A stretch of 60,629 nucleotides of DNA, taken from IMG/VR virus record IMGVR_UViG_3300034374_012765; one strand, 5' to 3'. Below, one piece after another: positions 17,516 to 52,977 of this stretch (its first letter is position 1; each line of letters opens with the position of its first letter). This stretch comes from an uncultured virus (IMG/VR IMGVR_UViG_3300034374_012765) (Duplodnaviria > Heunggongvirae > Uroviricota > Caudoviricetes). A model generated the notes under the pieces. That model was given only the letters and a program-made list of their open reading frames with translations, searched no databases and was not told the origin of the DNA. The position numbers and the translations under genes are program-made.

Positions 17516-18397
17516 TTACCAGGTCATATTAGTAGATCCGAGTACTACCCACGATCCTTCCTGATTTCCGGTGCCTTTACCAATTCTAGGCTCCCACTGG
17601 AGCTGAATTGATGATTGATAAGGTTTGCCACCATCTACGGTAATTCCGGTAGACGGGAATTCCCCGTAACTGCTAACCGTGTTAAATCCGGTATATGCTG
17701 AACTTTGTACACCAGTTTTAATACTTCCCGATGTATTATCAGTGTTCACTATGGTTACTCTTAAACCAGCAGGGAGATTGGATGCAGTTCCACCTGTCGT
17801 ACCTACGCTTAAATAAAGGCCAGAGCTACAACTAGCATAAATTACATCTTCTAGTCCCGTAATAGCATATGGTGTTCCTGAGGTAGTCGTTATTCCACCC
17901 CCACCAGTGGCAGAATTAGGGAATGCAGTTCCTGCAGTGATGCCGGGGGATACCGTGGTGTTCTGACTCCTGATGTTACCAGTTAGATACCCATAAGTTA
18001 ATGAAGAATTTAGAGAGGAAGCTCCATTTAAATTGGTAGAACCAGAGAAAGTTGTTGTTCCGCTCTGATTTAAGTTACCCGACAGAGTGAAGGTACCGCT
18101 ACCTGTCAGGGTTGTAGTGCTAATGCTTTGGAAACTACCAGCTCCAGTGGATGTTATCTGTGCTAGTGCTGTTCCCCCGCTTGGGATCGTGATTGAATCG
18201 AATTTACCAGTCTTCGCTGATATTCTCCCAGTGGATGCATTTGTAAGATCCAATATACCATTGGTTGAATCTATACCAAAGGTGTTATTGTATGCATTAA
18301 TCCAATTCTCCAATAATAGAAAATTAGAATTAAGTGTTGTCCTTGAGGAAGAAATCGAGTCAGATCCTAGAATCGTTGTTGTGCTTACTGTGGCCAT
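17516..18397 (-). CDS. Thr/Ser/Gly-rich fibre-like structural protein (start revised to MATVST)
   Basis: DSISSSRTTLNSNF N-terminal anchor motif; a GATATATA motif lies between the ORF-track start and this ATG. Confidence 0.65.
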   Translation of the reverse strand: MATVSTTTILGSDSISSSRTTLNSNFLLLENWINAYNNTFGIDSTNGILDLTNASTGRISAKTGKFDSITIPSGGTALAQITSTGAGSFQSISTTTLTGSGTFTLSGNLNQSGTTTFSGSTNLNGASSLNSSLTYGYLTGNIRSQNTTVSPGITAGTAFPNSATGGGGITTTSGTPYAITGLEDVIYASCSSGLYLSVGTTGGTASNLPAGLRVTIVNTDNTSGSIKTGVQSSAYTGFNTVSSYGEFPSTGITVDGGKPYQSSIQLQWEPRIGKGTGNQEGSWVVLGSTNMTW

Positions 18398-18432
18398 TTG
18401 ATGTAAATTTTTTGATTTCCTTAGTTTTGAAA

Positions 18433-18440
18433 TATATATC
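18433..18440 (-). promoter_or_regulatory. Putative late promoter GATATATA
   Basis: Divergent intergenic region heading the large structural operon. Confidence 0.6.
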
Positions 18441-18464
18441 ACATCCATTTTCAAACTCTAAAAT

Positions 18465-30163: not shown

Positions 30164-31894
30164 TTACCTATTTGAAGCTATTAGATTTGCCTTCGCCTCT
30201 GAATTAAGTTCGTTCATATAATTTCTAGGATTAACAGAAGCGATGGAGATGTTAAGAGCAGACGGTTTGCCCGAGACAATACCCTCCTGGTACTCTACAC
30301 CATTACGATCCTGCCATCCTCCTCTCATCAAAACTAATTCGTCCCTCTGTATTATTATATCACCAAAATCATCAAGACCGATCTGTCTATTCCTTTGTGC
30401 AGCGCTTGCATTTTTGAGACCATCAATAGTTCTGTGATAATTTTCATTTTCCTCTCCAATAAAATAGAAAGAAACTGAATCAATACCCTCAATAGATTCG
30501 AGTATTGCTATTATATCAGACTTTGGTATTCTGTCCCTTCTTTTATTATTCAGCATATACTCGGAAATGGATGTCCTAACCTTATCCTTTATAATCTCAG
30601 GGTCATTTCCTTCGAATATGGAGATAATAGCATTCCCGATAAACCTTCTTATCCTAGGCTCTATGATTTTAACAACAGTGGTAGCTATCATCCTTCCAGA
30701 ATCCTCTATTAGATTCAATATCGAAAGCCTTTGTGAATTGGTCAGAAGGAAGCTTGTCTCCGGGATATCAAAATAATCCTGGTTACTAGTCATAGTAATA
30801 GTAACATCAGGCACAAGAAATATGTAAACCACATTATCATCATCCAAATACTCATCATCAAAGGTAGAAAAGGCCTGTATCTGTGAGAATATATTAAATT
30901 TCTGTAGGTAGATCTCATAATTTTCAGCATTGGCAAACACAAAAGCACGGCTAGTTTTCGGAGCAACTAACCTGGTAACTTCAATAGGCTCCGGATCTGA
31001 ACCAAATGAGGGATCGAGTACACCGGTCACCCTAACATAATCATCTAAGTTAACAGTATTCCCAAATAAATCCTCCCCACTATCCATAAATTTATAGGTA
31101 AGTATCTGGTCCTCTCTACTCTGGAGATTTCCGCTAAATCCAGATGTTTGTAAATACTCTACCCTTATCGTAGCCCCTTGCTGAGGAACTTTACCGAAAT
31201 TAGAATTACCAAAGTAGATATCTATTCCCTCCTGTATACCACTCTTAACCAGGTATCCCTCTTTGTTTAGCGGAATATCATAAAGGGATTCATATCTTTC
31301 CCATTTATTCCCATTCACATATACATCAACATAGAACTGATCTATCAGTGCACCAGCTTTGGAGGGTAAGTTAAAGCTCTGAAGAGCTCTCCCAGTACCG
31401 GTAAAAGTTGAGGATCCGAAAGATCCCTGTACTATCTTGAAGTTAAAAACTGCGGATCTATTAAGAGGTATCTTTACCGAAGGAGATCCAAGGATTACTG
31501 AATAAGGAAGACCGTTTTGTATACACTGAATTCTGGGTGTCCCCTTAAGAATTACCGCACCCCCACCAACATCAGATTCCCGAAGATTCCACCCCAGTGA
31601 AATTTCACCCTGAGCTGCCATGCCTCTGGATGGATCGTGGCCTGCTATTCTAGCTAAACTCTTTATAGAATAATTCCTTGTTGCTTCCTGAATGTTTAAT
31701 TCGGTTATCGAATCCTCGATAAAGTACAGAATCATCTGGGATAGATTTTCTAAGACGAAGAGAATCTGTCCCCAAGCAGATGCAACTGTAAATACATTTC
31801 TAGATTGGTTATAAGTTCTCTGTAGAAACTGATAGGAGTCGTTCAGAAGACCTCCAATTAAAATGTTGTTTTTCTTAAAAATATTTTGTGCCAT
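30164..31894 (-). CDS. gp6: Baseplate wedge protein gp6 / baseplate-J-like
   Basis: EATRNYSIKSLARIAGH, IYFGNSNFGKVP..GATIRVEYLQTSG..GN, GSDPEPIE..R..AP and AENYE motifs; follows gp25. Confidence 0.85.
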   Translation of the reverse strand: MAQNIFKKNNILIGGLLNDSYQFLQRTYNQSRNVFTVASAWGQILFVLENLSQMILYFIEDSITELNIQEATRNYSIKSLARIAGHDPSRGMAAQGEISLGWNLRESDVGGGAVILKGTPRIQCIQNGLPYSVILGSPSVKIPLNRSAVFNFKIVQGSFGSSTFTGTGRALQSFNLPSKAGALIDQFYVDVYVNGNKWERYESLYDIPLNKEGYLVKSGIQEGIDIYFGNSNFGKVPQQGATIRVEYLQTSGFSGNLQSREDQILTYKFMDSGEDLFGNTVNLDDYVRVTGVLDPSFGSDPEPIEVTRLVAPKTSRAFVFANAENYEIYLQKFNIFSQIQAFSTFDDEYLDDDNVVYIFLVPDVTITMTSNQDYFDIPETSFLLTNSQRLSILNLIEDSGRMIATTVVKIIEPRIRRFIGNAIISIFEGNDPEIIKDKVRTSISEYMLNNKRRDRIPKSDIIAILESIEGIDSVSFYFIGEENENYHRTIDGLKNASAAQRNRQIGLDDFGDIIIQRDELVLMRGGWQDRNGVEYQEGIVSGKPSALNISIASVNPRNYMNELNSEAKANLIASNR

Positions 31895-31898
31895 CTTC

Positions 31899-32270
31899 TT
31901 AACTTACTTTCAAAGCAATTGCTGGTGAGGTATTGCTTAAACCCGGAATATAAAAATCTAGGTACGCAATATCCCTATTTGTACCCTGATAAAATTTTAG
32001 ATCGAAATACCCATTAAGTTGGGAAAAAAGAGGAACATAAATCCTAAGATGTTCGTTTATTCTTTCTCTCAGACTAGTTTCGGAAAGGTTCAGAGAAAAA
32101 ACTAGATCCTCTAAATTTAACCCAAATTTAGGATCACCAAGGACCTCTCCCCGATTCGTAATGAGCATCATCTTAAGTTGCCCAACACATATATCGGCAG
32201 GGTTTGTTATCTCAAGGATATTCTCCTTGTAGTTAAAATCTTCTGGATCCTTGTTATAAATTTCGACCAT
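31899..32270 (-). CDS. gp25: Baseplate wedge gp25-like protein
   Basis: MLITNRGEVLGDPKFGLNLEDLVF, the gp25/GpW signature (TxxGERxxxPxFG); 123 aa. Confidence 0.85.
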   Translation of the reverse strand: MVEIYNKDPEDFNYKENILEITNPADICVGQLKMMLITNRGEVLGDPKFGLNLEDLVFSLNLSETSLRERINEHLRIYVPLFSQLNGYFDLKFYQGTNRDIAYLDFYIPGLSNTSPAIALKVS

Positions 32271-32289
32271 TGGGAATTTATTTTCCCAA

Positions 32290-32297
32290 TATATATC
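32290..32297 (-). promoter_or_regulatory. Putative late promoter GATATATA
   Basis: Intergenic, upstream of gp25. Confidence 0.6.
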
Positions 32298-32301
32298 GAG
32301 A

Positions 32302-33078
32302 TTAATTCCACTGTAAGAAATAGGAAGGAGTATTCTCTCCGTTGATCATATCCATCACTTCTTGAAGCTCTTTTTCACCGTCGCTTCTAAGCTCAGAAGT
32401 ATTAACACTAACCCCACCAGGAAGGTTATAATTGAATGCACTTAGGACTCTGGATAGGCTTATCTTGGATTTAGCTAGGCAATATCTTATGAACAGCTCA
32501 TCGTCATATAAATCATCATCATCTATCGCGACAAAACATCTAACAGCAACGTCCATTCCATTCTGGTCATACCCTGTACCAACCCCTGACATGCCAGATC
32601 TATTGGGGTCCCTACCCAATATGGTTAGTTTTTTAGTGTTCTTATTCCACTTAAATGCATAAGTAGGCAATAGATAAGCTTGAGCAAGATCAAAATAGGA
32701 ATACATGACAGTACGATAAACTAAATTATCCCCAGTAAAGGGTGATAATAGAAGCTCAGATCCTAGGAGTTTAGAATCTCCAAAGTCTCTATCTGGGGTT
32801 CCTGATATACCCATTCCATTAACTTCTCTCACATCATATACAGTGACTATAGAAGGAGGGAGCTGTATTTGTCTAGTGTTTCTAAAACTAGGATTTGCAA
32901 AAAGATTATTAGCCAGTATAAATACCCGATCTTCTACGGCATATTGATAGTTATCGTACATATAATCCCTCGCCCTTCTAATGATTCTGTGTATTTCATC
33001 ATCATTTAGGTTATAAGGCAGCGAGCAGCTTGCCGATAAATCATCTTTAATCTCCTGTACTAATTCCTCTAATGTCAT
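32302..33078 (-). CDS. gp13: Neck / head-completion protein gp13-like
   Basis: C-terminal LPGGVSVN..LRSDGEKELQEV and FKWNKNTKKLTILG are typical of T4-like gp13. Confidence 0.8.
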   Translation of the reverse strand: MTLEELVQEIKDDLSASCSLPYNLNDDEIHRIIRRARDYMYDNYQYAVEDRVFILANNLFANPSFRNTRQIQLPPSIVTVYDVREVNGMGISGTPDRDFGDSKLLGSELLLSPFTGDNLVYRTVMYSYFDLAQAYLLPTYAFKWNKNTKKLTILGRDPNRSGMSGVGTGYDQNGMDVAVRCFVAIDDDDLYDDELFIRYCLAKSKISLSRVLSAFNYNLPGGVSVNTSELRSDGEKELQEVMDMINGENTPSYFLQWN

Positions 33079-33079
33079 C

Positions 33080-34477
33080 TCAATAATTCTGATTTTTAAA
33101 TATTATCCTGCGAATAGGATCATTCAGATTCTTAAGTCTAGAGTCTGTTATAAATCTACTCTGTCTTATATCACTGAATCCTTTTACCTCCTCTGTTTCC
33201 TTACTAACGTTGGCGCTGCTACCCAGATCAGCTTTTCTAATCACACCACCGTTAACTTCACAGTTTATCATTTTCCTCGGACAATCGATATAGCAGGAAT
33301 CTAAAAGATTCCCGTAATCGGCACTGGTATTATGAACCTTACTGTTATAAACCTTATTAGAATTGGCAATTTGTGACTCCAAAATTTCAGAATCCTTCAC
33401 CTCGCAACCATATAGGTTACAGTTAGCCAATTTGCAATTTCTAATTTTACAGTCTATCAGATCAAGATCAGAAAGATATCCAGACCCTTTGCACTTAGCG
33501 TTTTTCAATTGAAATCTACCAGTAGAGGTATCATAGTTAAAGAACGCATATTTAACCCCACCTTCAACTATTATATCAAATACCTTCTCGCGAATAACCG
33601 GAAAATAAGTCTTTATATTTTCCTCGTAACCCTTGAGGTCGACAAGTAGATGAAAATCAGGAAAATTCATAAAGAAAGACTCAGGGTCAGAAAAACTTCT
33701 AACTACCTTTGTGTACTCCTTCATCATCTCCTGAAGTCTCTTGAGGTCGGATTGACTATAAACCCTCTTTCCTGAAAGTATGTCATAGAGATATAATACC
33801 ACATAATCGACAACTTCCCGTATGGCGGAGATTTTCTTCTGATAGTCCTTCCCACCTAGGTATCTTATTTCTAGGTATCCCTTAGGGACTTTCGTGAAAT
33901 TAGCACCGTAATACTTCTCCTCTGGTATTTTAAAAAGTCTAGGATCTATGGATGAGATATTCTCGAGTATAGAAAATCTATTCCTTGGAACTATTTTCTT
34001 AACCGATTTAGCATAAACGTTATTGGTTCTATTACCAAACTTGGAATAAATCAAGCCTTCGTCTATACCAAGAACGAACTTAAGCTTATCCAGCTCTTCC
34101 ATTTTTTGCAAATCCCGGTTAGCTTTAGAAAAGCTGACCGAAAATTGGAAGGCACACTTGTCGCTTGTCCATCCATTTTCATCAATCCACCTTAAGGTCT
34201 TAATTAAAATGGGTATAGCCTCCACGTATGGAAGGGGACCAGTAATAAGCTCATTCATGTTAGATCCACCGGAATAATCAGGCTCCAACTTAAAGGTATC
34301 AGAAGTAACCGGGACCTTCGAGTGATATTTATTGCTCAGGACTACCTTCTTACCAAGGAGTTTGGACAACTGATCCACTATTCTCCCCCTAACCATCTCC
34401 GAGTAAAATTCGAACTCAAATCCGATAAGAGAAGAGGCTAAAGCAGTAGCTTTATCAAAGTGGGTATCCTTACTCAT
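33080..34477 (-). CDS. Putative amidoligase (COOH-NH2 ligase) family protein with a C-terminal beta-helix repeat region
   Basis: IGFEFEF, EPDYS..NELITGP, KYYGANF and YLEIRYLGG motifs; start MSKDTH overlaps the S1 stop (ATGAGTAA). Confidence 0.7.
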   Translation of the reverse strand: MSKDTHFDKATALASSLIGFEFEFYSEMVRGRIVDQLSKLLGKKVVLSNKYHSKVPVTSDTFKLEPDYSGGSNMNELITGPLPYVEAIPILIKTLRWIDENGWTSDKCAFQFSVSFSKANRDLQKMEELDKLKFVLGIDEGLIYSKFGNRTNNVYAKSVKKIVPRNRFSILENISSIDPRLFKIPEEKYYGANFTKVPKGYLEIRYLGGKDYQKKISAIREVVDYVVLYLYDILSGKRVYSQSDLKRLQEMMKEYTKVVRSFSDPESFFMNFPDFHLLVDLKGYEENIKTYFPVIREKVFDIIVEGGVKYAFFNYDTSTGRFQLKNAKCKGSGYLSDLDLIDCKIRNCKLANCNLYGCEVKDSEILESQIANSNKVYNSKVHNTSADYGNLLDSCYIDCPRKMINCEVNGGVIRKADLGSSANVSKETEEVKGFSDIRQSRFITDSRLKNLNDPIRRIIFKNQNY

Positions 34478-35627
34478 CCAGTGGTTTAGCAAATATTTTT
34501 CCCATTACAGCATCAACTTCATATATCTCAACAAGAACAGAATCTCCAGATTTTAGACCTTTATGGTCTCTTGTCATGCGTCCTTGAGGAATCATAGCCA
34601 TCAAGTCAAGTTCTGGAATTTCTATCAAAGCTCCATTCTTTCTTTTGTGCTTTATTATTGCCTTTACTGGCTCATGTGTACCATCATCAACGTCCTTTTT
34701 AAGGTCATATACGCGAACGGTCTTTTCTAAAGGACCTCCAAAAGTCAAGGTAAGCCTGTTATCGTCCTTAACCTCCTTAACATAGAATTCTATCTCGTCT
34801 CCAGCTCTAAACCCTTCAACCACATGATTCTCAAATTCAGTCTTGTGTATAAGACCAGTATAGATATCCTCCCATTCCACGAAAACTCCGAATTTAGAAG
34901 TGCCAGTAACATAACCCTTGTATTTCTTGGTCAAATCCAATTCCTGTATCTTCTGATCCATTATCTTCTCCAAATACTTCTTATAAGAAACTACGAATAT
35001 TCCTTTATGCTGTACATAACCATCTATCATAACGTAGATAACCTTCCCGATGTATGAGTCGAAGTCAGTTATCTTATTAGCAGCAGCAAGAGATCCAGGG
35101 AGAAAGCATTCAATTCCTTGCACATCCACGAGATATCCACCTTTATTAACAGATTTTATTCTGGCTTCATAGGCAAGACTTTCCTTATGAATCTGTTCAA
35201 AGAATTCGATCTTCATATCATTAATAAATCCATCAACAACCGAACCATAATAAGTACCCATTACATTCCTGACTGTGGTGTTAACCTTAGTCCCTACTGA
35301 AAAATCTAATCCGGAAATACCAAGTCTTTTAGCGTCCTTGATCTCTTTTGCCAGATCTATGTAAATGGACTGGCCACTATCGGTCTGGGCTATGCAGTAT
35401 TCGTCGTTGGACCGGAGGATTTCACACTCGTACGAGTTACCTGTTATGAGGTCTTTAGTATAGGCTTTATCTCCCATGAAGTCAAACATTTTATCATAAA
35501 CATCCTGCGCATAAGGCTCATGACAATAAACTTTGGAACCATCCTTGGTTCTCACTTTTTGGTTTACGGTAAATCCATTGGGTACGTCCCAGTTAAAGTC
35601 CTCAATCGGAGTGTTTTGTTCGATCAT
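34470..35627 (-). CDS. rpsA: Ribosomal protein bS1-like multi-S1-domain RNA-binding protein
   Basis: About four OB/S1 repeats, including ARIKSVNKGGYLVDVQGIECFLPGS and YKGYVTGTSKFGVFVEW..TGLIHKTE. Confidence 0.85.
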   Translation of the reverse strand: MIEQNTPIEDFNWDVPNGFTVNQKVRTKDGSKVYCHEPYAQDVYDKMFDFMGDKAYTKDLITGNSYECEILRSNDEYCIAQTDSGQSIYIDLAKEIKDAKRLGISGLDFSVGTKVNTTVRNVMGTYYGSVVDGFINDMKIEFFEQIHKESLAYEARIKSVNKGGYLVDVQGIECFLPGSLAAANKITDFDSYIGKVIYVMIDGYVQHKGIFVVSYKKYLEKIMDQKIQELDLTKKYKGYVTGTSKFGVFVEWEDIYTGLIHKTEFENHVVEGFRAGDEIEFYVKEVKDDNRLTLTFGGPLEKTVRVYDLKKDVDDGTHEPVKAIIKHKRKNGALIEIPELDLMAMIPQGRMTRDHKGLKSGDSVLVEIYEVDAVMGKIFAKPLDE

Positions 35628-35656
35628 TTTTTTTGTATTAAAGTGTTATAACCACT

Positions 35657-35664
35657 TATATATC
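35657..35664 (-). promoter_or_regulatory. Putative late promoter GATATATA
   Basis: Intergenic, upstream of the S1 gene. Confidence 0.6.
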
Positions 35665-35693
35665 TAATACAAAAAAACTAAATAAGCCGATTC

Positions 35694-38426
35694 CTACTCC
35701 ATTACGGAGGGCATGATTAAATATCGGATAAGATAGAATTCCCTGTTAATCCGGATACGCAAAGCACTCGATTCAATTAAATCAGGATATTCAGAATTTA
35801 TTACCCTATATCTGTTCAAAGCAGTTCTTACACTACCCGAAAAAAGAGTATTCTTATTACCATCCGAATCCACACCAGGTATGTTAATCTGTGCATTCTC
35901 CAAACTCAAAACGGATAAGTCATTAAGATTATCATCGCGCAAAGTGTATAAAACTGCTAGAAACACCTTCACGCTATCACCAATCTCAGTCAATTTTCTC
36001 TCCCCCCAATAAAAAGAAGATCTCACTGGATAAAGAGGTTCATAAACATAGCCAGCATCACCTATAGGTATATTATAAAAAGATGAACCAGTCGCACTGG
36101 ATGATTCGGGGAGCTTGTTTTTATAAACGGAAGTACTCATACCATTATCCATCAACTGATCCGAAAGGTCATAAAAGAAAGTCTCTATTGGGGAGTTTCC
36201 GTCGATATCATAAGTGATAGAATACCAAAGATCCCTATCATCAGAACTATAAGAACCAAAAGTTCCCTTTTTAGTCCCTTGCCAATACCAGCTATTTGTC
36301 TTGTTAGTAACTAAAAGGTCTAGAACTTCATTTATGGATTCTACTGTAAGATCTGATAAACCCGCACCCTCACCAGGGGAGCCTATACCAAATAAACTCC
36401 TTACAACAGCAGGAAATAAAGATGGAACCTCAGCAGCTAACCCGCCAACGACGGCAATTATACCCTTTATGGACTCCCAAACCCCTATAAGCTTAATTGG
36501 GAGATATTTTTCTATAATATAAAGAGATACCTTATTTGGGTTATCAACGGTCAGATATGATTCAAATTCGCTCTGATTTATTCCCCTAATAATTTTCTCT
36601 ATATCGCTAAGACCCTCGTAGTCGCTTTCCTTGACATCACTCAGAACTCCATATTCGACGTATTTGTTTTCTACCTTTCTGTAGGAAACCCTAAAGACGG
36701 AGTAGTCAGAATCTACACTCAACCTAATCAAGTCACCAGGATTTACATTAATAAGGGAACCGAGAGAATTTTTAACGTCATCACTTACTAAAGAAACCCT
36801 CATCGTAGTAATATCCTTCACATTTCTAGAATTAGCAGAAATTTGCCCCTCCTCAGGAACAATAAGTTCCCCACTAAAGCTATACGGGAAGGTGACAGGG
36901 AAAGTGTCTAGATCCTCATTTTTTATTTGTCCTCTGATGGAATCAAAGAAATCTCCATTTGGCTGATATGAGCTAAGACCTCTAGAAAAAGCACCACAGA
37001 CCATATCGCTTATCAGCGGTTTTAACCCACGGTTAGAATCAGAAGGATCAACTTTGGCCTCCTCGTACGGCATAATAGTTGTAATCGCAGGTGAAATATA
37101 GGGTTCTAAAAACTGGAGGAAAGCCTCAGATATGAGATCACATATAAGGCCGAGAGGGTCAGTGAGACCTTTAATTACAGTCCTTATCAATGATATTGGA
37201 TTAGTTATTTTTTCAGCCAATCCTTTCAGGACCCCCAGTATCACCTTAATAGGTAAGAGGAGTAGCTTTAAATAATTGAGAAGTATTCTGATTAAGAAAA
37301 AAGGATTCTCGGCTCCTATCTGTAACACTCTGGCAAAAGATACCAAATCCTCTTTACTACTTTCGGTTAAATCCGGAGATCCGCTTAGTGTAGTTTCCTG
37401 TATTTTGGTAAAATCTATCTTCGGGAACTTCCCCTCAAAAACCCCAGAAAGAACCTCATCATATGCAATCCCAGACTGATTTGAGAGCTGATCTAGGTAT
37501 TGCCTGGTTGGAGAGTCTGGGGAAACATCAGAGAAATCCCCAAGAACTAAATTTATTCTTGAAAGTCCCGGAAAACTAAGTCCAAGAACCGAGAATGGTA
37601 TGGAGATCCTACCATTTGAAGTAAAGTCACGAAGTGCGAGCCTTCGGGAAGACCTAAGGGAAGCACTGGAGAATCCAGGAATAACTACACTTCCATCCCC
37701 AGGAACCTCCTCAACATTCAGCGATTTTATCTCTAAATCGATCCTATAATAAGGATCTGAAGAATTTATTTTTCTGACAGAAGTAACCTCAAAAACCCCA
37801 TATTTTCCATCACTACTCACCTCTATCTCATCTCCACTTTTAAGTAATCCGAGGGATCCATTATTATCCTCGACGTCGGTTACTTCGCTAACGTTTATCG
37901 AGGTTAGATTCTCTATCCCGGAAGACGTTGTTGTTATTTGTCCATCCGAGGGTGCTTGATTGATGTTATATGTTATGGAATATGAGAACCGATCAAGCTC
38001 GTCGTCTACATTATCGGGAGATGATGAATTAATAAGACTCTTCAACCTTCCTATATCACCACCAACGTCAGCCAAATTTAAAGATATAGGGAATGGGAAT
38101 TCCTTAAGCTGCTCATTTATGCCCTCATCCAGCATGAATTGGAGGGGATTAGAAAATAGGGTCCTTATCGAGGAGAGTGTTTCTCTAATCTCACGAATTC
38201 CGCTACTCATTATCTTTTTACCCATAAAAATGGGAGCAAATGCTGTAGCTAAGCTTCTCTCGAAAGTCCTTATCTGTAGCTTAATCAAAAGTCCAAGTCC
38301 AAATAGGTTTGAATTGGGTATTTTGAATTTACTGTCGCTTACTATACTGTCAGCGGTGTCATTTACCCTGTCTATAAATGCGTTAATTTCCGCATCTTCC
38401 AATATCTTGTCGGGTAATACAGCCAT
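35694..38426 (-). CDS. Large hypothetical protein with hydrophobic helices and an internal domain duplication
   Basis: 910 aa directly after the gp5-like gene; amphipathic/hydrophobic helices (FFLIRILLNYLKLLLLPIKVILGVL). Confidence 0.6.
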   Translation of the reverse strand: MAVLPDKILEDAEINAFIDRVNDTADSIVSDSKFKIPNSNLFGLGLLIKLQIRTFERSLATAFAPIFMGKKIMSSGIREIRETLSSIRTLFSNPLQFMLDEGINEQLKEFPFPISLNLADVGGDIGRLKSLINSSSPDNVDDELDRFSYSITYNINQAPSDGQITTTSSGIENLTSINVSEVTDVEDNNGSLGLLKSGDEIEVSSDGKYGVFEVTSVRKINSSDPYYRIDLEIKSLNVEEVPGDGSVVIPGFSSASLRSSRRLALRDFTSNGRISIPFSVLGLSFPGLSRINLVLGDFSDVSPDSPTRQYLDQLSNQSGIAYDEVLSGVFEGKFPKIDFTKIQETTLSGSPDLTESSKEDLVSFARVLQIGAENPFFLIRILLNYLKLLLLPIKVILGVLKGLAEKITNPISLIRTVIKGLTDPLGLICDLISEAFLQFLEPYISPAITTIMPYEEAKVDPSDSNRGLKPLISDMVCGAFSRGLSSYQPNGDFFDSIRGQIKNEDLDTFPVTFPYSFSGELIVPEEGQISANSRNVKDITTMRVSLVSDDVKNSLGSLINVNPGDLIRLSVDSDYSVFRVSYRKVENKYVEYGVLSDVKESDYEGLSDIEKIIRGINQSEFESYLTVDNPNKVSLYIIEKYLPIKLIGVWESIKGIIAVVGGLAAEVPSLFPAVVRSLFGIGSPGEGAGLSDLTVESINEVLDLLVTNKTNSWYWQGTKKGTFGSYSSDDRDLWYSITYDIDGNSPIETFFYDLSDQLMDNGMSTSVYKNKLPESSSATGSSFYNIPIGDAGYVYEPLYPVRSSFYWGERKLTEIGDSVKVFLAVLYTLRDDNLNDLSVLSLENAQINIPGVDSDGNKNTLFSGSVRTALNRYRVINSEYPDLIESSALRIRINREFYLIRYLIMPSVME

Positions 38427-38429
38427 TCA

Positions 38430-39098
38430 TTATTTGGTTTTGGATACATTGGAAAGGTGAGACGGATCAGAAGGAATTACAGGAGGAGAAGTAGGGGCTC
38501 CCAGGTTCCCCAGATGCGTATGGGAATTAAAGTAACTTTGGAAAATGTTTCCCTTTATTACAGACTCCGTTGCAGCTTCACCAAGCTCTATATTGTTGCA
38601 ATTAACAATGACTTTATTATTCTCCATCCTTATCTGATCGTTACCCATCTCAACCACTATTCTTAATTCACCATCGTCCTGAGTATCCAATTGTACCTTG
38701 GCATCACCAAGGATCAGATTAAGTCCTTTCTTCTGCGTGTAGAATATCTGAAGTGGACCAGGTACAGCATCATTATCATAAATCAAGGAATGAGCTCCCT
38801 CGTACGAATCAGAGATTTCAGACAACAAATCGGGCGAGGTTTCCCAATCGGAATAGTAATTCATTCTATAGTAGTTCTGCCCGTCGAAATCAACAGCCAC
38901 TACCGCTCCGATTCGAGGAACAGAAATATTTCCCTTACCCCCTCTACCAAAGGAGGGATTTTGTACCTGACTAGCCCAGGGGATATCCTCCGTTTCCAAT
39001 CCATCGAAGAGTCCAAAAACCCGGATCTTTGCCCTACCAGATTTCTGGGGATCATCAATATCTACTATTTCTCCTAAGTATATCTTTGGATTTGCCAT
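38430..39098 (-). CDS. gp5: Baseplate central spike, gp5/gpV-like
   Basis: OB-fold YLGEIVDIDDPQKSGRAKIRVFG..IPWA..VPRIGAVV; C-terminal HTH (HxH) apex motif followed by GAPTSPP. Confidence 0.88.
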   Translation of the reverse strand: MANPKIYLGEIVDIDDPQKSGRAKIRVFGLFDGLETEDIPWASQVQNPSFGRGGKGNISVPRIGAVVAVDFDGQNYYRMNYYSDWETSPDLLSEISDSYEGAHSLIYDNDAVPGPLQIFYTQKKGLNLILGDAKVQLDTQDDGELRIVVEMGNDQIRMENNKVIVNCNNIELGEAATESVIKGNIFQSYFNSHTHLGNLGAPTSPPVIPSDPSHLSNVSKTK

Positions 39099-39101
39099 CT
39101 G

Positions 39102-41468
39102 TTAAATTTCATCTTCATCCGGATTAAATCCTCCTAAGCTAACATTATACTTATCAGGGGGCTTAGTGTTTCCGAGATTCAATGGGGGATCCACTATAAA
39201 ATCACCATTAGTAACCGGATAAACTTTACCAATATTTCCCTCTGGATAATTCCTTCTCACTTCCTGATAAACCTTTCCTGGAGGTTGAGAAAAATTATTC
39301 TCCGGCGATCTTATCTCACCCCTGGAAGACACAAGATTGGCCTCGTCATAAACACTGTCAGGCTGGAGGAGCTCATTAGAATACTTATCCTCATATACTC
39401 TATCGTTGAAGTTAGCATATTTTCTATCGGGGACTCCTAAATCACTACCAGGAACTCCACTATATACATCATCACTTGATAGACTATCATAATTTCTATC
39501 AGGGACGCCAAGATCCGCACCAGGGACATCTGGATAAACATCATCTCCAAAATCAGGATAAACTCGATCAGGGACGCCAAGATCCGCACCAGGGACATCT
39601 GGATATGCATCTCCAGAAGGCTCTTGATAAACTCGATCAGGGACGCCAAGATCCGCACCAGGGACATCTGGATATGCATCTCCCGCTGGATCCTGGTAAA
39701 CTCGATCGGGGACTCCAAGATCCGCACCAGGGACATCTGGATATGCATCTCCCGCTGGATCCTGGTAAACTCGATCGGGGACTCCAAGATCAGTTCCGGG
39801 TACGTTCGCATAAGCATCACCAGAAGGCTCAGGATAAACCCGATCAGGAACTCCGAGATCAGTTCCAGGTACGTTCGCATAAGCATCACCAGAAGGCTCA
39901 GGATAAACCCGATCAGGAACTCCGAGATCAGTTCCAGGTACGTTCGGGTATTCATCCTTCACTCCTTGTATAGGTGGATACACTCTCTCCGGAGGACCTC
40001 CCTCTCCAGTGGTTTGGGGGTTTGGCAGATTTCCCTTAAATATGTTGTCTATTCCGGTTTCCGCTGCACCGTTTAAAAAATTCTCCAGATTATTAAATCC
40101 GAATCTACCACCATCATTTGTCAATCTGCCTAGCTGAGACGGATTAAGGGAATATATGTTACCAAGAAGGGATTGATCAAGGCCATCCAAGTTGCTTGTA
40201 AGTGCACTAACCCCTTCATTAACCAGATCATTCACTACATTAGAAACAGCATTAGTTAAAAGCTGACCGCCAAGACCTAAAAGTTTCTCCAAATCTAATG
40301 ATGAATCCCCTAGCTCCTCTAACGAAGAAGAATTTTGGTCATATCCATCCGCGAGTATCAATGGCTTTTTATCACCTCTGATATTTGGATACTGACTCTT
40401 AACTCTAACTTTACCTACATGAACCTTAAAGGAGTTGGTTTCAGGATCGGCTGAACTTGATCCCATATCTATCGAGCTTTTATAAGGAACGCTTTCACTA
40501 AAATCAAACTCACACTGCTGGCATTCGTAAATTTTTACAGGCTTGATCCCACTCTGATCCTGCTGGTTAGTAAAGGCTGCAAAATCATTAGACAGTCCAC
40601 TCTGATCTAATACATTACCCACAAAGCTAGAAAATGATCCTCCACCTCCCCCACTGTCGGACCCAGCTGATCTATCAAAATCAGAACCAGCAAGTCCACC
40701 AAAGCTAGATATAATACTCCCACCAGGATTGGTGTTAGAATTGATAAGACCTCCTAGATCATTAAGAGCAGTCAATGCAGTGCTAGACGCAGTAAGTCTA
40801 CTTGTTTTAAAGAAGTTCCTTATCTCAGTTACGAATATCCACATAGTGAACTTCCTGAGATTTCTTGGTACAAGCCATCTCATGTTATCAAAATCAAAGG
40901 TAGCCTGATTATAGAGATCTGCTAATGCAGAGATTCTAAGGTTTAAAGATTCAAGTGTATTGAAGGTTAAAACCTTATCACCGGTCCTTTGAGTATCAAA
41001 CCCATCAATCTCATTAGAAGGCTGAAATCCATTTTTACTTACAAGTGAAAGCTGGTCAAGACCCTCTATGGACTGGAAAAACCAGGGGGAATTTGTATTT
41101 ATATCTTTCAGCAAGCTTTGGAACTGCAATATAGCGTTTGCTCTCTTTCTTTGATTATTATCGGCAAATCCTGCGTCTCTTTGGATTAGATAGTTATATG
41201 CGGAATAATAAGCAACCTCCGGATTTGAAAGTTGGTACTGTGGCTGTCCACTAAAAGAATTCTGTATGTTAGACATGCCAGAGTTCTCATTGGTATAATT
41301 ATCTCTCTTAAGTAATGGACTTGGAGCCCATCCCCATTCTGTACTTATCGGCAAAGAACCAAAATCAAACATAACTTTAAACCCAAGATATGTAGGATCT
41401 TCATTTCCGCCAGAATTGGATAATTTAAATCCTTTCAGGAATAAGTTTCTATTTCTATCGGTTGCCAT
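39102..41468 (-). CDS. Baseplate/tail-tube-fold-like protein with a C-terminal acidic tandem repeat
   Basis: PWFFQSIEGL, ESLNLRI, VPRNLRKFTMWIFVTEIR and CEFD motifs suggest a tube-like fold; 8 x 23-aa repeats. Confidence 0.55.
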   Translation of the reverse strand: MATDRNRNLFLKGFKLSNSGGNEDPTYLGFKVMFDFGSLPISTEWGWAPSPLLKRDNYTNENSGMSNIQNSFSGQPQYQLSNPEVAYYSAYNYLIQRDAGFADNNQRKRANAILQFQSLLKDINTNSPWFFQSIEGLDQLSLVSKNGFQPSNEIDGFDTQRTGDKVLTFNTLESLNLRISALADLYNQATFDFDNMRWLVPRNLRKFTMWIFVTEIRNFFKTSRLTASSTALTALNDLGGLINSNTNPGGSIISSFGGLAGSDFDRSAGSDSGGGGGSFSSFVGNVLDQSGLSNDFAAFTNQQDQSGIKPVKIYECQQCEFDFSESVPYKSSIDMGSSSADPETNSFKVHVGKVRVKSQYPNIRGDKKPLILADGYDQNSSSLEELGDSSLDLEKLLGLGGQLLTNAVSNVVNDLVNEGVSALTSNLDGLDQSLLGNIYSLNPSQLGRLTNDGGRFGFNNLENFLNGAAETGIDNIFKGNLPNPQTTGEGGPPERVYPPIQGVKDEYPNVPGTDLGVPDRVYPEPSGDAYANVPGTDLGVPDRVYPEPSGDAYANVPGTDLGVPDRVYQDPAGDAYPDVPGADLGVPDRVYQDPAGDAYPDVPGADLGVPDRVYQEPSGDAYPDVPGADLGVPDRVYPDFGDDVYPDVPGADLGVPDRNYDSLSSDDVYSGVPGSDLGVPDRKYANFNDRVYEDKYSNELLQPDSVYDEANLVSSRGEIRSPENNFSQPPGKVYQEVRRNYPEGNIGKVYPVTNGDFIVDPPLNLGNTKPPDKYNVSLGGFNPDEDEI
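39402..39956 (-). repeat. In-frame tandem repeat, 8 copies of about 69 bp (DxYxxVPGxDLGVPDRxY)
   Basis: Visible directly in DNA and protein; 555 bp = 185 codons. Confidence 0.95.
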
Positions 41469-45861: not shown

Positions 45862-46189
45862 TATTATCAGAATTTTCTCCGGATGCTTTAGGACCTTCAC
45901 CCCCCACATCATCAGGCAATCCGAGAAATTCAAAGGGCTTAGAATTCTCTTCCTGATTTGACGTAGATTCACCTAAAGTAGAAATGGTAGCATCCTGATC
46001 GTCTAGGAGCTTCTGTGATTTGGCCTCCAGTTGATCGTTTTTAATTCTCTGCAGGTGCTGAAGATGTAGTTGCTTTCCCATTTCCTGAGATCTTCTGATC
46101 CTCTCCCTTTGCTCCTTTAGAGTCTCATTTTTACCTATATAGCCAAATTGCTTGGCCATTTGTCTTCTCTGTCTTCTAGATAAACTCAT
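45854..46189 (-). CDS. Small basic helical hypothetical protein
   Basis: MSLSRRQRRQMAKQFG; translationally coupled on both sides. Confidence 0.65.
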   Translation of the reverse strand: MSLSRRQRRQMAKQFGYIGKNETLKEQRERIRRSQEMGKQLHLQHLQRIKNDQLEAKSQKLLDDQDATISTLGESTSNQEENSKPFEFLGLPDDVGGEGPKASGENSDNNG

Positions 46190-46776
46190 TATATAGAAAA
46201 ATTAAATCCCTTACTTTTTTTCCCACCTGAACCGTCTTGGTTAGATCCTTGGATATCTATTCCCAGGACATATTTAAAGAGCTTCAGGAAAAGACCAGGG
46301 ATAAAAATATCCTTTGATTTAACCACGTCATTAGCAGGAATAAACTTGAATTCCATACTTTGCTCTTGTTCGCTGCCATCTGTAGGAGCTTCCATTTTAT
46401 CCAATCCGGTAACATCAACGGCAAAACATGGCTGCTCGTGATCGACAAACTTAGAGGAAGTAACAGACCCTAAAAAATACCATCTTTCATTCTCAGATGC
46501 TTCAAATCCACTTTCTTCAAAAAGCTCTCTCTTTGCAGTTGACAATAAATCAGGATCCTCCTCATCACTAGTCCCAGTTATAAGTGTAACACACCTACCG
46601 CCCTCCCTAAATGGGTTATTCTCCTCCAGAACTCCAACTGCAAGGGGTAATCCTTGCTCATCAGAAACGAATGGCATGATTACAACATTCATAAAAAGGG
46701 GTATTACCCCTACCATACCGTCTCTCTCCACCATATGGAGATTCGGTGATTCGTATAATACCTTATTCTGACTCAT
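46189..46776 (-). CDS. Nudix hydrolase
   Basis: Nudix box GTSDEEDPDLLSTAKRELFEESG. Confidence 0.88.
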   Translation of the reverse strand: MSQNKVLYESPNLHMVERDGMVGVIPLFMNVVIMPFVSDEQGLPLAVGVLEENNPFREGGRCVTLITGTSDEEDPDLLSTAKRELFEESGFEASENERWYFLGSVTSSKFVDHEQPCFAVDVTGLDKMEAPTDGSEQEQSMEFKFIPANDVVKSKDIFIPGLFLKLFKYVLGIDIQGSNQDGSGGKKSKGFNFSI

Positions 46777-47398
46777 CTTCTTTCACTACGCTTCGTGTAG
46801 TCTTATTTTTATCATAATAGGATAGAATAGATTCTCCTAAAGCAGCCCTAATATCTTCTATATCAATACCTTCAGTAACATAATCCACTATCTCTGTTTC
46901 AGCTTCATCAAAGGACGAGATTAAAACAGAGTAAAGACTCTTTGGCGGAAGATTTAGCTTAAGACTAATTGAAACATTCACCCAATTATTTTTCTGCTTT
47001 TTAAGTAGTGTATATATCGGAGAATCCTCAACTTGAACAGAGGATACTGTATTCATCTCCCTAGATGATATAGTATTTCTTTTCTGAGGTATGCTATCCG
47101 CAGTAGGAGGAGGGATAACCTGTGGTTCCTTATTAAAATCAACTCGAGAGGCTGGAAATGCATCCATATATTCGTTCAGGAGATCTATGTTAATTCTTCT
47201 ACCACTATTAAAGGTAAGGAAAGTCATACCCGTACCCTCATCACGCTCAACGTCCTTATACTTCTCTGAATTCCCCATCTGGTCACTCTTCAACCAGACG
47301 TAGTCCATTTTTGAAAGATCCTCCTTGAGTTCCTCTATAGATTTATCCTGTAGGTCCATTTTTTTCTTCTTTGAAAATATCTTCTTCAGCCATTTCAT
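46763..47398 (-). CDS. Hypothetical protein
   Basis: 211 aa ORF coupled to the Nudix gene; the start may be the downstream MDLQD. Confidence 0.65.
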   Translation of the reverse strand: MKWLKKIFSKKKKMDLQDKSIEELKEDLSKMDYVWLKSDQMGNSEKYKDVERDEGTGMTFLTFNSGRRINIDLLNEYMDAFPASRVDFNKEPQVIPPPTADSIPQKRNTISSREMNTVSSVQVEDSPIYTLLKKQKNNWVNVSISLKLNLPPKSLYSVLISSFDEAETEIVDYVTEGIDIEDIRAALGESILSYYDKNKTTRSVVKEDESE

Positions 47399-47484
47399 AT
47401 GCTTACATCTAACAGCAAAAGCTAATTAAACAACTCTTAAAAAAGTAAACATAAACCTCAATAGCATCAGCTTAGTTTACTTTT

Positions 47485-47512
47485 TTATAGATCTTATTAC
47501 GGTATATGTTCC
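47485..47512 (-). promoter_or_regulatory. Putative bipartite promoter GGAAC-N18-TATAA
   Basis: Heads the Nudix-containing operon. Confidence 0.45.
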
Positions 47513-47520
47513 GGATAAAA

Positions 47521-48438
47521 TTATTTAGGAGAGAAATTGCTTCTAGCATCAGTATACATCTCCTCAATATGTGACTCAGGAATGGTGTTTTTTAATACAT
47601 CCATCAATTCCATTATCTCCTTTCTCTCCCTCTTTTTACGATCCTCGATATTCTGGTCGCTATCCATAGAATGATATTTCAGCATCTTAAGAAGGTTATC
47701 CACCAATTTTTTCTGAGTTTCCTCTGTATCCCTTCCGGTCACGAGTGAAAGCAAATATTGATCCATTGGATCAGATATTAGGGTTTGTATTTTATCATGT
47801 GAGGTGTTGTATGTACCTTTATCTGTTTTGTACCTACAAGAGAACTTTCCCCCGTTCTTCCTCAGAATAAACACCGGGTGGATTTCGTTACTATCTTTAT
47901 AAACTCTTAAGGATTTAAATAGATCGCCGTCTCCCTTGCGGTCCAGCTCCACCTGCATCCCGTTATTAAGATCAGCCTCATAAGTATTTTTATCTATTTC
48001 GGCGAGATTAGAAACAGAGCAATCCACACCCAAGGTGTCCATCATCAACTCTATATCATCGCACACGGAGGAAGACTTGTCCCTAATAGGGGAGATTTTG
48101 GAAGAGATATAACCCTCCAGAAATTCATCGAGAAGCTCGATGTTTTTTTTATCATTAAACCAATTAAGCGAAGTATTAATTTTCAAAACATCGAAGTCTG
48201 AATACCCCTTCCTATCAAGACATTTGATGGGCAGAGATATCTTGCTATCACCGTAGGATAAGCTGTGAGAGTCTTGTTTTTGCTCGTGAAAAATGTAATT
48301 TTTGTCCACGGATCTAGGTATCCTAATCTTAACAACACCATCATTGAAAGGACCCAGTATTCCTAGATCTACCTTGGAGGTTGAGTTATTCTCGTTAATT
48401 GAATTGAATTCATTAAAATTTAGAACCAGCTTAGTCAT
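47521..48438 (-). CDS. Hypothetical protein, candidate internal head protein
   Basis: N-terminus MTKLVLNFNEFNSINE; ATG overlaps the upstream stop. Confidence 0.6.
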   Translation of the reverse strand: MTKLVLNFNEFNSINENNSTSKVDLGILGPFNDGVVKIRIPRSVDKNYIFHEQKQDSHSLSYGDSKISLPIKCLDRKGYSDFDVLKINTSLNWFNDKKNIELLDEFLEGYISSKISPIRDKSSSVCDDIELMMDTLGVDCSVSNLAEIDKNTYEADLNNGMQVELDRKGDGDLFKSLRVYKDSNEIHPVFILRKNGGKFSCRYKTDKGTYNTSHDKIQTLISDPMDQYLLSLVTGRDTEETQKKLVDNLLKMLKYHSMDSDQNIEDRKKRERKEIMELMDVLKNTIPESHIEEMYTDARSNFSPK

Positions 48439-48868
48439 TATCTCCAAATAAGACGTCTATTTTAAAATCCTTGGGATTCATGGATTTTCTCATATCCACT
48501 ACAATTTTTGATGGATTACAAGGAATTAGATTCTTACCTTTTTTACACAATACCGAAGAATGATCTATATTTTCACCGGGAACAATATCCATCTCATATT
48601 CCTTTGGCGGATCCGGATAAGAGTCCACCTTAATTTCCAACTCGATGTTACTGATTTTAAATTGGAGATCTTGTATACCGGACTTGGATCTCCCGATAGA
48701 AACGTCATATTCAACATCGCATTCCTTCTCGTCGACATCTACCAGCTCCGGTGGTCTATTGATTAGATCAATATCCAGATAACCTAGCTCGTGAGAAAAT
48801 GAATATTCGCTTGATACTCTTTTTCCCTTCGCATTATCAAAAGAAACATAGTCATGAATTCTAGGCAT
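48431..48868 (-). CDS. Hypothetical acidic protein
   Basis: 145 aa ORF preceded by promoter motifs. Confidence 0.65.
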   Translation of the reverse strand: MPRIHDYVSFDNAKGKRVSSEYSFSHELGYLDIDLINRPPELVDVDEKECDVEYDVSIGRSKSGIQDLQFKISNIELEIKVDSYPDPPKEYEMDIVPGENIDHSSVLCKKGKNLIPCNPSKIVVDMRKSMNPKDFKIDVLFGDND

Positions 48869-48894
48869 TATCTTACTGCACTTTTTTTATGTAT

Positions 48895-48902
48895 TATATA
48901 TC
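48895..48902 (-). promoter_or_regulatory. Putative late promoter GATATATA
   Basis: Intergenic, upstream of 48868. Confidence 0.55.
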
Positions 48903-48962
48903 CCTCACCTTTAAAGGTTCTTTTAATGTCTTATCCAAAAACTCAAAGGGGAAATATATAAG

Positions 48963-49703
48963 ATGAACATAAAAAATCATACCATGAAAGATCTCAAGAC
49001 AACATGGTTTATACAACATCCAATAGACCAAGAGCACAAGCAATACGTGCTATTAGATTTTCTCAAAAGTGTAAACACCGAGATATCCAAAGAAAATATC
49101 TATTACCCGGTCAAGAAAATATTCTCGATTATCAAGGAGCTAACCTTTGTAAAAAACCTCCTAGAGGGAAAAAATGTAGATCCGTATGTAAAAATAGGAA
49201 GGATCAAGAAATTAAAGGAATGTATTGAGGAGAATCACCTCTCGCTAAATGAAAAAATCGAATGTCTCAAGATAGTTGATTCGTCACTCGCCATACTATA
49301 TAAGTATGCTGATCTCGGTATGAGTTTATGGAGAAATATAGAGAAAAGAATTAAGACTTTTGACCTGTTCCACCCAGATAAGGAAACGGGCGAATATGGA
49401 ATCCTCATCCTTAGAAATATGTCGAGTGATGGAATGTTAGCATATTTATGGCAAAACGGGGATGATATGAAGTCGGTCAAAGGGACTATTATGAAAAATA
49501 TCCCACTCAAGAATCCTTATTTTTCACTCTCATATGAATTTTCAGTCCATGAGATAATGCAAATTCTAGGTATAAGTGTGAATCCACCGAGGGTAACAGT
49601 GATGGAAATATCGGAAGATTTCAGAGAAGACTCGGTTATAGTCAAAATAGCAAAGGAGCTATTTATAAGAGAAATCTCATCAAGTAAAGAAAGGGAAATC
49701 TAA
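48963..49703 (+). CDS. Hypothetical protein
   Basis: 246 aa plus-strand ORF filling the gap between minus-strand genes; WFIQHPIDQEHKQYVLLDFL; possible start at 48984. Confidence 0.75.
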   Translation: MNIKNHTMKDLKTTWFIQHPIDQEHKQYVLLDFLKSVNTEISKENIYYPVKKIFSIIKELTFVKNLLEGKNVDPYVKIGRIKKLKECIEENHLSLNEKIECLKIVDSSLAILYKYADLGMSLWRNIEKRIKTFDLFHPDKETGEYGILILRNMSSDGMLAYLWQNGDDMKSVKGTIMKNIPLKNPYFSLSYEFSVHEIMQILGISVNPPRVTVMEISEDFREDSVIVKIAKELFIREISSSKEREI

Positions 49704-50378
49704 TTATTGGGATTCCTTCCACACGTTATCTATAAGAGAAACGCCCTCATACTGGCGTGCTAATCTATCTCTAATTATACCCATCTTGTTTATACCCTCC
49801 CTCCATTGGACCTCGTTAAACCATATATCCGGGCTATCCCAAGAATACTTTTCGAGACACTCCAAATAAAAATCTCTGGAAGCAGCAGGTAGTATAACAC
49901 AATGAGCAAGTATTATCTTATTGGTTAAATAAAAATCAGGATAATCCGGATCTGAATCATTTCCTATAGGAGGGGATTGCAAATAGTTGTTTACATATCT
50001 GGATCCAAGTGAAGTATAATAAAGGTTATGTAAATTAGAAAATTCAACGGACTCCTTCAGCTTATTCATGAAATCCTGATGATCACAAAGCAAAACACAA
50101 TCACATTCACATAGGACAAGAGCATCTATATCATCCGAGAAGTTTTCCATAATAGCTTTCTTAAAAGAATGGAAAGCACCATAATGTCCCGGACCGTGAT
50201 TTGTGTAGCCAGATTGACTTATTGCCTTCTTTTCCTTCCAGGCATCTCCCGTATATCTCTGATTTATCTGCTGGATGTATTCTAATCCCATATAACCCAG
50301 AGGAGAAAGTGATTCTATAGATTTTTTCTCTCTCTCCTCCTCAATCTCGGTTAAAATATGTACAAGCTTAATCTTCAT
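49704..50378 (-). CDS. Glycosyltransferase family 25-like protein
   Basis: GHYGAFHSF, ALVLCECD and LAHCVIL align with the GT25 GCxxSH / LILEDD / AYII motifs. Confidence 0.6.
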   Translation of the reverse strand: MKIKLVHILTEIEEEREKKSIESLSPLGYMGLEYIQQINQRYTGDAWKEKKAISQSGYTNHGPGHYGAFHSFKKAIMENFSDDIDALVLCECDCVLLCDHQDFMNKLKESVEFSNLHNLYYTSLGSRYVNNYLQSPPIGNDSDPDYPDFYLTNKIILAHCVILPAASRDFYLECLEKYSWDSPDIWFNEVQWREGINKMGIIRDRLARQYEGVSLIDNVWKESQ

Positions 50379-50390
50379 GCTTATTTTTAG

Positions 50391-50419
50391 ATTATATCAC
50401 AAAAAAAGAGGCAAGTTTC
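50391..50419 (-). promoter_or_regulatory. Putative bipartite promoter GAAAC-N18-TATAAT
   Basis: Upstream of the GT25-like gene; overlaps the terminator. Confidence 0.5.
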
Positions 50420-50434
50420 AAAGAAACCGCCTCT
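50401..50434 (-). terminator. Intrinsic terminator
   Basis: Minus strand AGAGGCGGTTTC-TTT-GAAACTTGCCTCT followed by a T run, downstream of 50479-50835. Confidence 0.7.
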
Positions 50435-50478
50435 AATGATTAAGACCGCTTAATCGCAGCTTACTCAGTGTAAGTTTT

Positions 50479-50835: not shown

Positions 50836-50867
50836 GATCCTTAATTTTCTTTTTTCTTGTGACCAAT

Positions 50868-51539: not shown

Positions 51540-51555
51540 GCGGAAGTTTTTTCTT

Positions 51556-51563
51556 TATATATC
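51556..51563 (-). promoter_or_regulatory. Putative late promoter GATATATA
   Basis: Intergenic, upstream of 51539. Confidence 0.6.
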
Positions 51564-51581
51564 TATCCACATTGGCTTATT

Positions 51582-52976: not shown

Positions 52977-52977
52977 A

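Follow-up and report, generated by a model that had tools for sequence, protein, structure and literature searches.

A conserved S1 protein family of huge phages with a predicted Bacteroidota-type ribosome anchor

Ribosomal protein S1 (bS1) has been attributed to phages before. One such claim, made for PhiMa05, was reportedly answered by a published comment. Huge-phage proteins with S1 domains were described by Al-Shayeb et al. (2020, PMC7162821) as "possible rpS1" and were proposed to substitute for the host protein in initiation; the genes of their carriers rarely have a Shine-Dalgarno (SD) sequence, and a true rpS1 was considered hard to confirm. Mizuno et al. (PMC6375957) excluded S1 as ambiguous, and the ubiquity of S1 domains led to phage S1 genes being passed over in 2019-2020 (PMC6375957, PMC7162821). 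Chen et al. (2022, PMC9723584) described bS21 of large freshwater T4-like Bacteroidetes phages as a late protein encoded among structural genes, and proposed it as a ribosome substitute. Here we analyze the S1 gene of a giant freshwater phage. It lies in the 60,629-nucleotide (nt) IMG/VR record IMGVR_UViG_3300034374_012765 (the window, meaning this whole stretch) and encodes a 385-residue protein that we call phage S1.

Phage S1 genes and the idea of a hijack were thus published in 2020 already. Beyond the accessible account of Al-Shayeb et al. (PMC7162821; no text on S1 was found in the available part of its supplement), we provide a domain map that lacks a D3-type domain, a host-specific anchor, a promoter with its geometry, and synteny that includes relatives without S1 and a different context in Lak phages. 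Like the proteins of that account, phage S1 has homologues in large phages, here six large uncultured-phage and 15 Lak records. It shares with Bacteroidota bS1 an F[DN]W tag, domain D2, RNA-type oligonucleotide-binding (OB) folds and an acidic isoelectric point, and probably also the N-terminal helix and a strongly diverged D1; it differs in having four domains rather than six, a D4/D5-like third domain and no equivalent of lysine K43, and in forming a separate long-branch clade. As in the bS21 phages, an initiation-related ribosomal protein is encoded among structural genes in the phage S1 clade; however, bS21 is a different protein, and the copies of Chen et al. (PMC9723584) closely resemble those of hosts and lie on the opposite strand. 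Neither bS21 nor IF1 or IF3 was found in four complete relatives. Literature searches found no experimental study of the phage S1 family or of the putative promoter element GATATATA, although subscription papers and supplements might hold one, and the available parts of PMC7824862, PMC13282480, PMC12880540 and PMC11165621 contained nothing on phage S1. The family is real and conserved, and sequence comparisons and structural models make it plausible that its members bind ribosomes.

The preliminary description of the window, made from its letters, had counted about four S1 repeats. The Pfam S1 profile (PF00575, E 3e-17) passes on just two stretches of the open reading frame (ORF), and an AlphaFold model built on 60 homologues (predicted local distance difference test score 77.7) has four beta-barrels, as had been counted, behind a short helix and a low-confidence N-terminus (Table 1). 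The best sequence and structure matches in PDB are all bS1 chains, and the isoelectric point is 5.2, acidic as in host bS1. Model residues 42-220 superpose on residues 3-174 of Escherichia coli bS1 in its 30S-bound form, which comprise the helix, D1 and D2 (Z 13.0, root-mean-square deviation 4.8, 169 residues aligned), and a global profile alignment pairs residues 7-232 with the N-terminus, D1 and D2 of Bacteroidota bS1 (probability 99.8, E 1e-28). These are the domains by which bS1 is anchored (PMC10123108, PMC3858243). For domain-by-domain comparison, host sets were cut from 59 bS1 sequences in four host groups. Fold B scores 53 bits to Bacteroidota D2 and at most 10 to any other domain. Fold C scores higher to D4 or D5 than to D3 in all four groups (24, 33 and 43 bits to D3, D4 and D5 of Bacteroidota) and has the longer D4/D5 type of loop, and thus the third domain is not of D3 type. 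Its aromatic and histidine surface, F246, F249 and H261, corresponds to RNA-contact positions of S1 domains (PMC8287937) and is kept in 60 of 60 close homologues; fold D is without these residues. Across the broad family, fold D is D4/D5-like, and a first mapping of it to D6 did not hold with a broad profile. The six-domain Gram-negative form of bS1 is not matched (TIGR00717, 64 bits versus a cut-off of 577). Together, the comparisons support phage S1 as a bS1 homologue that would retain the ribosome-docking half.

Near its N-terminus, phage S1 also has the F[DN]W tag, at F11 to W13. The tag matches an aromatic helix of Bacteroidota bS1, which in Flavobacterium johnsoniae contacts uS8 on the 30S subunit (PMC13000457). 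An alignment of 60 close homologues shows no variation at F11 or W13, and the tag is present in 120 of the 120 close homologues listed. In host bS1, sampled from 80 bacterial loci, it occurs in 22 of 24 proteins labelled Bacteroidota and in none of the 56 others, about 127 residues ahead of the D2 motif. The N-termini of the two exceptions are of alphaproteobacterial type. (Two genomes labelled Bacteroidota/Flavobacteriaceae, L107 and L116, carry alphaproteobacterial-type bS1, and are possibly mis-binned contigs.) The tag is also found in 43 of 127 distant full-length members, including that of Lak-A2, against a background of 0.004 per 75 residues. These distributions support the presence of a Bacteroidota-type anchor in phage S1. 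Because this docking tag of Bacteroidota bS1 has been kept, phage S1 probably sits on host ribosomes.

A search for homologues yielded 2645 proteins from 5027 candidates. Among these, the 120 close homologues listed are 56-100% identical and 383-403 residues long, and some come from contigs of 300-400 kb. A profile search gave 206 clusters at E 1e-30 or better, and PHROGs has no family for the protein. In a phage collection, 33 records match, consisting of 15 Lak phages, six uncultured phages that range from 462 to 735 kb, and 12 weak matches. Two of the 12 were examined; both are bacterial bS1, and their records seem to be contaminants. GenBank entries L082 and L083, labelled Bacteriophage sp., contain ordinary bacterial rpsA regions, apparently through contamination. 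Phage S1 thus represents a family conserved in huge phages, whose distant members occur in Lak phages and in phages of 462-735 kb. The Lak-A2 homologue (L084:11932-13041) combines the tag with three OB folds and an acidic tail, and its translation is identical under genetic codes 11 and 15. Metatranscriptome contigs from four of four runs contain parts of S1 at low depth; the runs were found via this stretch, the contigs carry no information on strand, level or timing, and the absence of coverage elsewhere in the gene is not informative.

The host appears to be a member of the Bacteroidota. This assignment is based on the tag, on SD depletion, on a gene for a type IX secretion system (T9SS) C-terminal domain in three of four complete relatives, and on the Lak homologues. 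T9SS C-terminal domains are linked to Bacteroidota, and homologues of S1 from Prevotella phages were found in the phage collection. One T9SS sorting domain lies in a phage gene (L227:12153-14054) that also encodes a cohesin-like domain. As the preliminary description had stated for the start regions it inspected, starts in the window mostly lack an SD: SD-like words precede two of 36 starts versus 50 of 223 internal ATGs. They are likewise depleted in a complete relative, G002 (21 of 458 ORFs). The S1 start region had been quoted with one A too few. It had been proposed as well that phage S1 biases ribosomes toward phage structural mRNAs. A-rich, SD-less starts do not support such a bias, because they are usual both in the inferred host and throughout the phage gene set. 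Bacteroidota hosts are SD-less and use upstream adenines (PMC6847099), and in F. johnsoniae, initiation without an SD is stimulated by bS1 (PMC9976891). In G002, start regions of structural and replication genes are alike in A content (0.57 versus 0.51) and in SD frequency (1/38 versus 4/41).

The element GATATATA ahead of S1 occurs seven times in the window, which is the chance level (mean 6.97). Its placement is nonetheless non-random: it lies at -50 to -11 of five of 36 curated starts versus 0.12 in shuffles, none of 2000 of which reached five. A sixth copy (18433-18440) is 35 nt ahead of an internal ATG of ORF 17516-18454, and this ATG, rather than the listed TTG, is the probable start. 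Among distinct upstream regions, the element is present for S1 in 52 of 52 and for gp25 in 50 of 50, and is absent from all regions of the spike (0/48), amidoligase-like (0/55), neck (0/56) and wedge (0/50) genes. Given its presence ahead of S1 and gp25 and its absence ahead of the amidoligase-like and neck genes, S1 is predicted to head a unit of three genes. Tests at genome scale were run on relatives G001-G004 and G006 (L210-L277; G003 as the first 390 of 434 kb), and starts in the spacing analysis were taken as the first ATG opening 60 codons. In G002, 59 of 458 ORFs, most of them unannotated, have the element within 60 nt. It precedes head closure (before terminase), sheath, prohead protease (before capsid), gp25, fibers and two endolysins, and also Dps, a RimK-like ligase and homing endonucleases; it is not directly ahead of polymerase, RecA, DnaB, gp32 or topoisomerase. 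The earlier suggestion of a late-type promoter is thereby supported, since virion and lysis units are marked. The idea that S1 shares the motif of the structural genes is correct for S1 itself, but in the window the element is directly ahead of gp25 and unknown genes, and not of most structural genes.

The spacing of the element is informative about its likely mode of action. Of 256 sites in the five related records, 211 are followed by an ORF start at a distance of at most 70 nt. The distances peak precisely at 4 nt (30 sites from 21 protein families), are absent at 8-12 nt and are broadly distributed over 13-35 nt (146 sites); among the 167 cases with a leader, 148 have a purine as the fifth base after the element. 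The simplest reading is that transcription starts at this fifth base, from which it follows that 30 of the 211 linked genes would be leaderless, that the other leaders would have a median of 17 nt, and that the S1 leader would be 25 nt. This fixed spacing to a purine start, together with placement before virion and lysis units, supports GATATATA as a late-type promoter. The late promoter of T4 is TATAAATA, recognized with gp55. Like it, GATATATA is a single short A/T box near the start site before virion and lysis genes, and the G002 genome is itself T4-like (gp23, gp20, gp32, PolB). Unlike it, the element has its own sequence, a predicted position of -12 to -5 and a leaderless class. G002 has one sigma-70-type gene. 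A scan of 31800-36000 for sigma-70 promoters and terminators gave nothing above shuffles. No minus-strand terminator was seen before S1, and therefore read-through from the spike genes may reach it.

In order of transcription, the locus comprises genes for hub-like and repeat proteins, the spike, a 910-residue protein, S1, an amidoligase-like protein, the neck adaptor, gp25 and the wedge; the window ends in the major capsid gene. S1 had been placed between spike and neck inside a baseplate/neck operon. It belongs to that block and the neck gene belongs to its unit, but S1 adjoins neither spike nor neck, because the 910-residue and amidoligase-like proteins intervene, and it heads a unit of its own. 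The order is fixed among close relatives: an amidoligase follows S1 in 80 of 80 S1-selected viral loci and a neck gene in 78 of 80, and conversely, of 80 loci selected by the neck gene, 64 extend at least 2.7 kb upstream and 61 of these have S1, the other 16 being too short to count. The 462-kb phage L087 has the same gene order as the window. The Lak gene instead lies among replication genes, directly upstream of a DnaB-like gene identified by reading its translation. The baseplate position is thus clade-specific.

Table 1. Features of the S1 locus, in coordinates of the window
Feature	Position	Strand	Remarks
Phage S1 gene, 385 residues, ATG start	34470-35627	minus	N-terminal extension, helix, four OB folds
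F11-N-W13 anchor	35589..35597	minus	Like the aromatic helix of F. johnsoniae bS1 touching uS8
Helix, residues 40-51	35475..35510	minus	Counterpart of the uS2-binding N-terminal helix of bS1, by structure alignment
OB fold A, residues 65-129	35241..35435	minus	D1, strongly diverged
OB fold B, residues 153-214	34986..35171	minus	Clear D2 orthologue; hhalign 98-99% to D2
OB fold C, residues 235-295	34743..34925	minus	D4/D5-like, RNA-binding type; F246, F249, H261 invariant in close clade
OB fold D, residues 321-382	34482..34667	minus	In this clade, RNA-type aromatic and His positions not kept; patch of basic residues, KHKRK; no such fold in Lak
GATATATA late-type promoter element	35657..35664	minus	Predicted -12..-5; 29 nt ahead of S1 ATG
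Predicted S1 leader, 25 nt	35628..35652	minus	A/U-rich, SD-less; start 35652 inferred from spacing
Next GATATATA	32290..32297	minus	Ahead of gp25 and wedge genes
Amidoligase-like protein (Amidoligase_2-like)	33080..34477	minus	Pentapeptide-like tail; ATG overlaps S1 stop
Neck / head-tail adaptor	32302..33078	minus	phrog_211; third gene of predicted S1 unit
Upstream neighbors: 910-residue protein and baseplate spike	35694..39098	minus	910-residue protein variable between relatives; spike = 38430-39098

Other genes of the window have features of their own. The nearest Atlas clusters of the amidoligase-like protein (33080-34477) are all viral. A 788-residue protein (39102-41468) has about 10 tandem repeats of 21-22 residues, rich in proline, glycine and aspartate, and its length varies among relatives. 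Nudix, asparagine-synthase-like and kinase-like genes lie between the capsid and tail blocks (46189-53520), and the place of the Nudix gene is conserved in relatives.

We tentatively favor the view that phage S1 is a shortened bS1, made late, that would dock on the Bacteroidota 30S subunit and substitute for or add to host bS1. Its own GATATATA promoter would drive its late expression, and the protein would occupy the bS1 site with the F[DN]W tag on uS8 and the helix and D1 on uS2, together with D2, and would there take the place of host bS1 or supplement it. OB fold C, presumably an RNA-binding domain, would hold short, A-rich, unstructured leaders, and initiation would be kept running during mass production of virion proteins. 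S1 function would thus be supplied to suit phage leaders, without strong exclusion of host mRNA. That the protein takes over from host bS1, or competes with it, at a late stage of infection had been proposed in the preliminary description; homology, anchor and promoter make this the best reading, whereas the proposed selectivity for phage messages does not follow. Ribosome docking, which is common to this view, to selective eviction of host bS1 and to counter-defense (both considered below), is, for the three jointly, likely on the available sequence and model comparisons.

Several observations weigh against the favored view. Fold A is closest to D1, but weakly (at best 17 bits, with a broad profile), so that D1 is barely recognizable, and the position of E. 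coli K43, a lysine inserted into the zinc pocket of uS2 (PMC10123108), aligns to a glycine. The gap from tag to helix is about 12 residues longer than in hosts, and 84 of the 127 distant full-length members have no tag. Some genes led by the element in G002 are non-structural, for instance a MazG-like gene that is followed by ribonucleotide reductase. No structural neighbors were found within 12 kb of S1 in Lak and four other huge phages, and three relatives (L322, L323 and L332) lack S1 between the spike block and the amidoligase while their neck and baseplate genes are intact. A profile search of these three records, which are 6-32% complete fragments, found no S1; in L332, the element lies 5 nt ahead of the amidoligase ATG (L332:5581-5596). 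Phylogeny does not clearly favor the view either. A first D1-D2 tree contained 25 phage rows and 50 of 80 host rows, leaving out random alpha- and betaproteobacterial and Bacteroidota rows, incomplete rows, and L107, L116 and L169. In it, the phage rows form a single clade (SH-aLRT 100), separated from host bS1 by a long branch and lying outside Bacteroidota. We treated its apparent kinship with fast-evolving Bacillota and candidate phyla radiation rows as long-branch attraction. A second tree of 44 rows, with long-branch rows removed after the first had been seen, placed phage S1 in an unresolved fork beside Bacteroidota and Calditrichota. Forcing phage S1 and Bacteroidota together cost 0.35 log units (p-AU 0.35), so that this joining is neither rejected nor shown. 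The long branch and the fork therefore indicate an old origin of the family.

The same evidence can be explained in other ways. Phage S1 might be a selective displacer that evicts host bS1. With no D3-type domain and two repeats fewer, it would be unable to capture or unfold host leaders that are long or structured, and ribosomes would shift to short-leadered or leaderless late phage transcripts. The D4/D5 character of fold C and the leaderless and short-leadered classes of linked genes are as expected for such a protein. In E. coli, moreover, fragments consisting of D1 or D1-D2 evict S1 and halt bulk translation while sparing leaderless mRNA and 17-nt unstructured leaders (PMC3296737), and the minimal unfolding unit is D1-D3 (PMC3858243). 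However, these results may not carry over to Bacteroidota, a D4/D5-type domain in third place may do the work of D3, and the retained RNA residues of fold C argue against a plain decoy. Bacteroidota leaders are also similar, with a mean of 33 nt and 13% of 10 nt or less (PMC6847099). Starts led by the element in G002 fold less than those of the host (-1.8 versus -4.6 kcal/mol), but the host sample is crude (24 first-ATG ORFs of different G+C). We consider selective displacement unlikely. An off-ribosome RNA chaperone or cofactor that binds phage mRNA, tmRNA, RNA polymerase or a nuclease is, in our estimation, distinctly unlikely: without docking, it is hard to account for a uS8 tag that is invariant and specific to the host lineage, and for the retention of the helix-D1-D2 region. 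Such a role would nevertheless fit the divergence of D1, the loss of the K43 equivalent and the absence of the tag from most distant members, as well as the presence in G002 of genes for SmpB, an RNA ligase and a sigma factor. Host S1 serves T4 RegB and Q-beta replicase in this way. Such roles of S1 are described in PMC13157829 and PMC10123108, and Al-Shayeb et al. (PMC7162821) allowed for action "on or off the ribosome."

Two further explanations concern when and why the protein is needed. The fixed place in the tail/neck block, its recurrence in L087 and the late promoter could mean that phage S1 is packaged and injected to seize ribosomes in the next infection, or that it is a structural or assembly factor. 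There is no match to a structural-protein fold, the position differs in Lak, and S1 is cleanly absent from three relatives with intact neck and baseplate genes, all of which make a virion role improbable; packaging would in any case be compatible with ribosome binding. Alternatively, phage S1 could restore S1 function once host bS1 has been cleaved, modified or depleted during infection. G002 encodes translation-repair functions (RNA ligase, CCA enzyme, SmpB and 33 tRNA calls), and a long branch away from hosts would fit escape from recognition. Supply of S1 function explains late timing equally well, and no defense that targets bS1 was found, though none was looked for, so we view counter-defense as very improbable. 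The G002 genes concerned are, in addition to a RimK-like ATP-grasp ligase behind the late motif (L218:2306-3766), those for SmpB (L221:6480-6923), the CCA-type enzyme (L221:9312-10043), the RNA ligase (L221:1359-2498) and the tRNA calls (L225-L227).

With its tag, D2 orthology and promoter geometry, the family is a concrete candidate for a phage S1 that truly binds ribosomes. Natural variants with four domains, or three in Lak, provide a probe of whether Bacteroidota bS1 reads upstream adenines, a question raised previously (PMC6847099). We consider it unlikely, though worth stating, that huge Bacteroidota phages of a very old and widespread lineage displace host bS1 late in infection by means of a D3-less bS1 bearing the host uS8 tag, as a matched promoter-and-ribosome specificity switch. 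Such a switch would retune ribosomes to a late program of leaderless transcripts or transcripts with leaders of about 17 nt, and, if leader discrimination is true, would be a direct case of a phage altering ribosome specificity.

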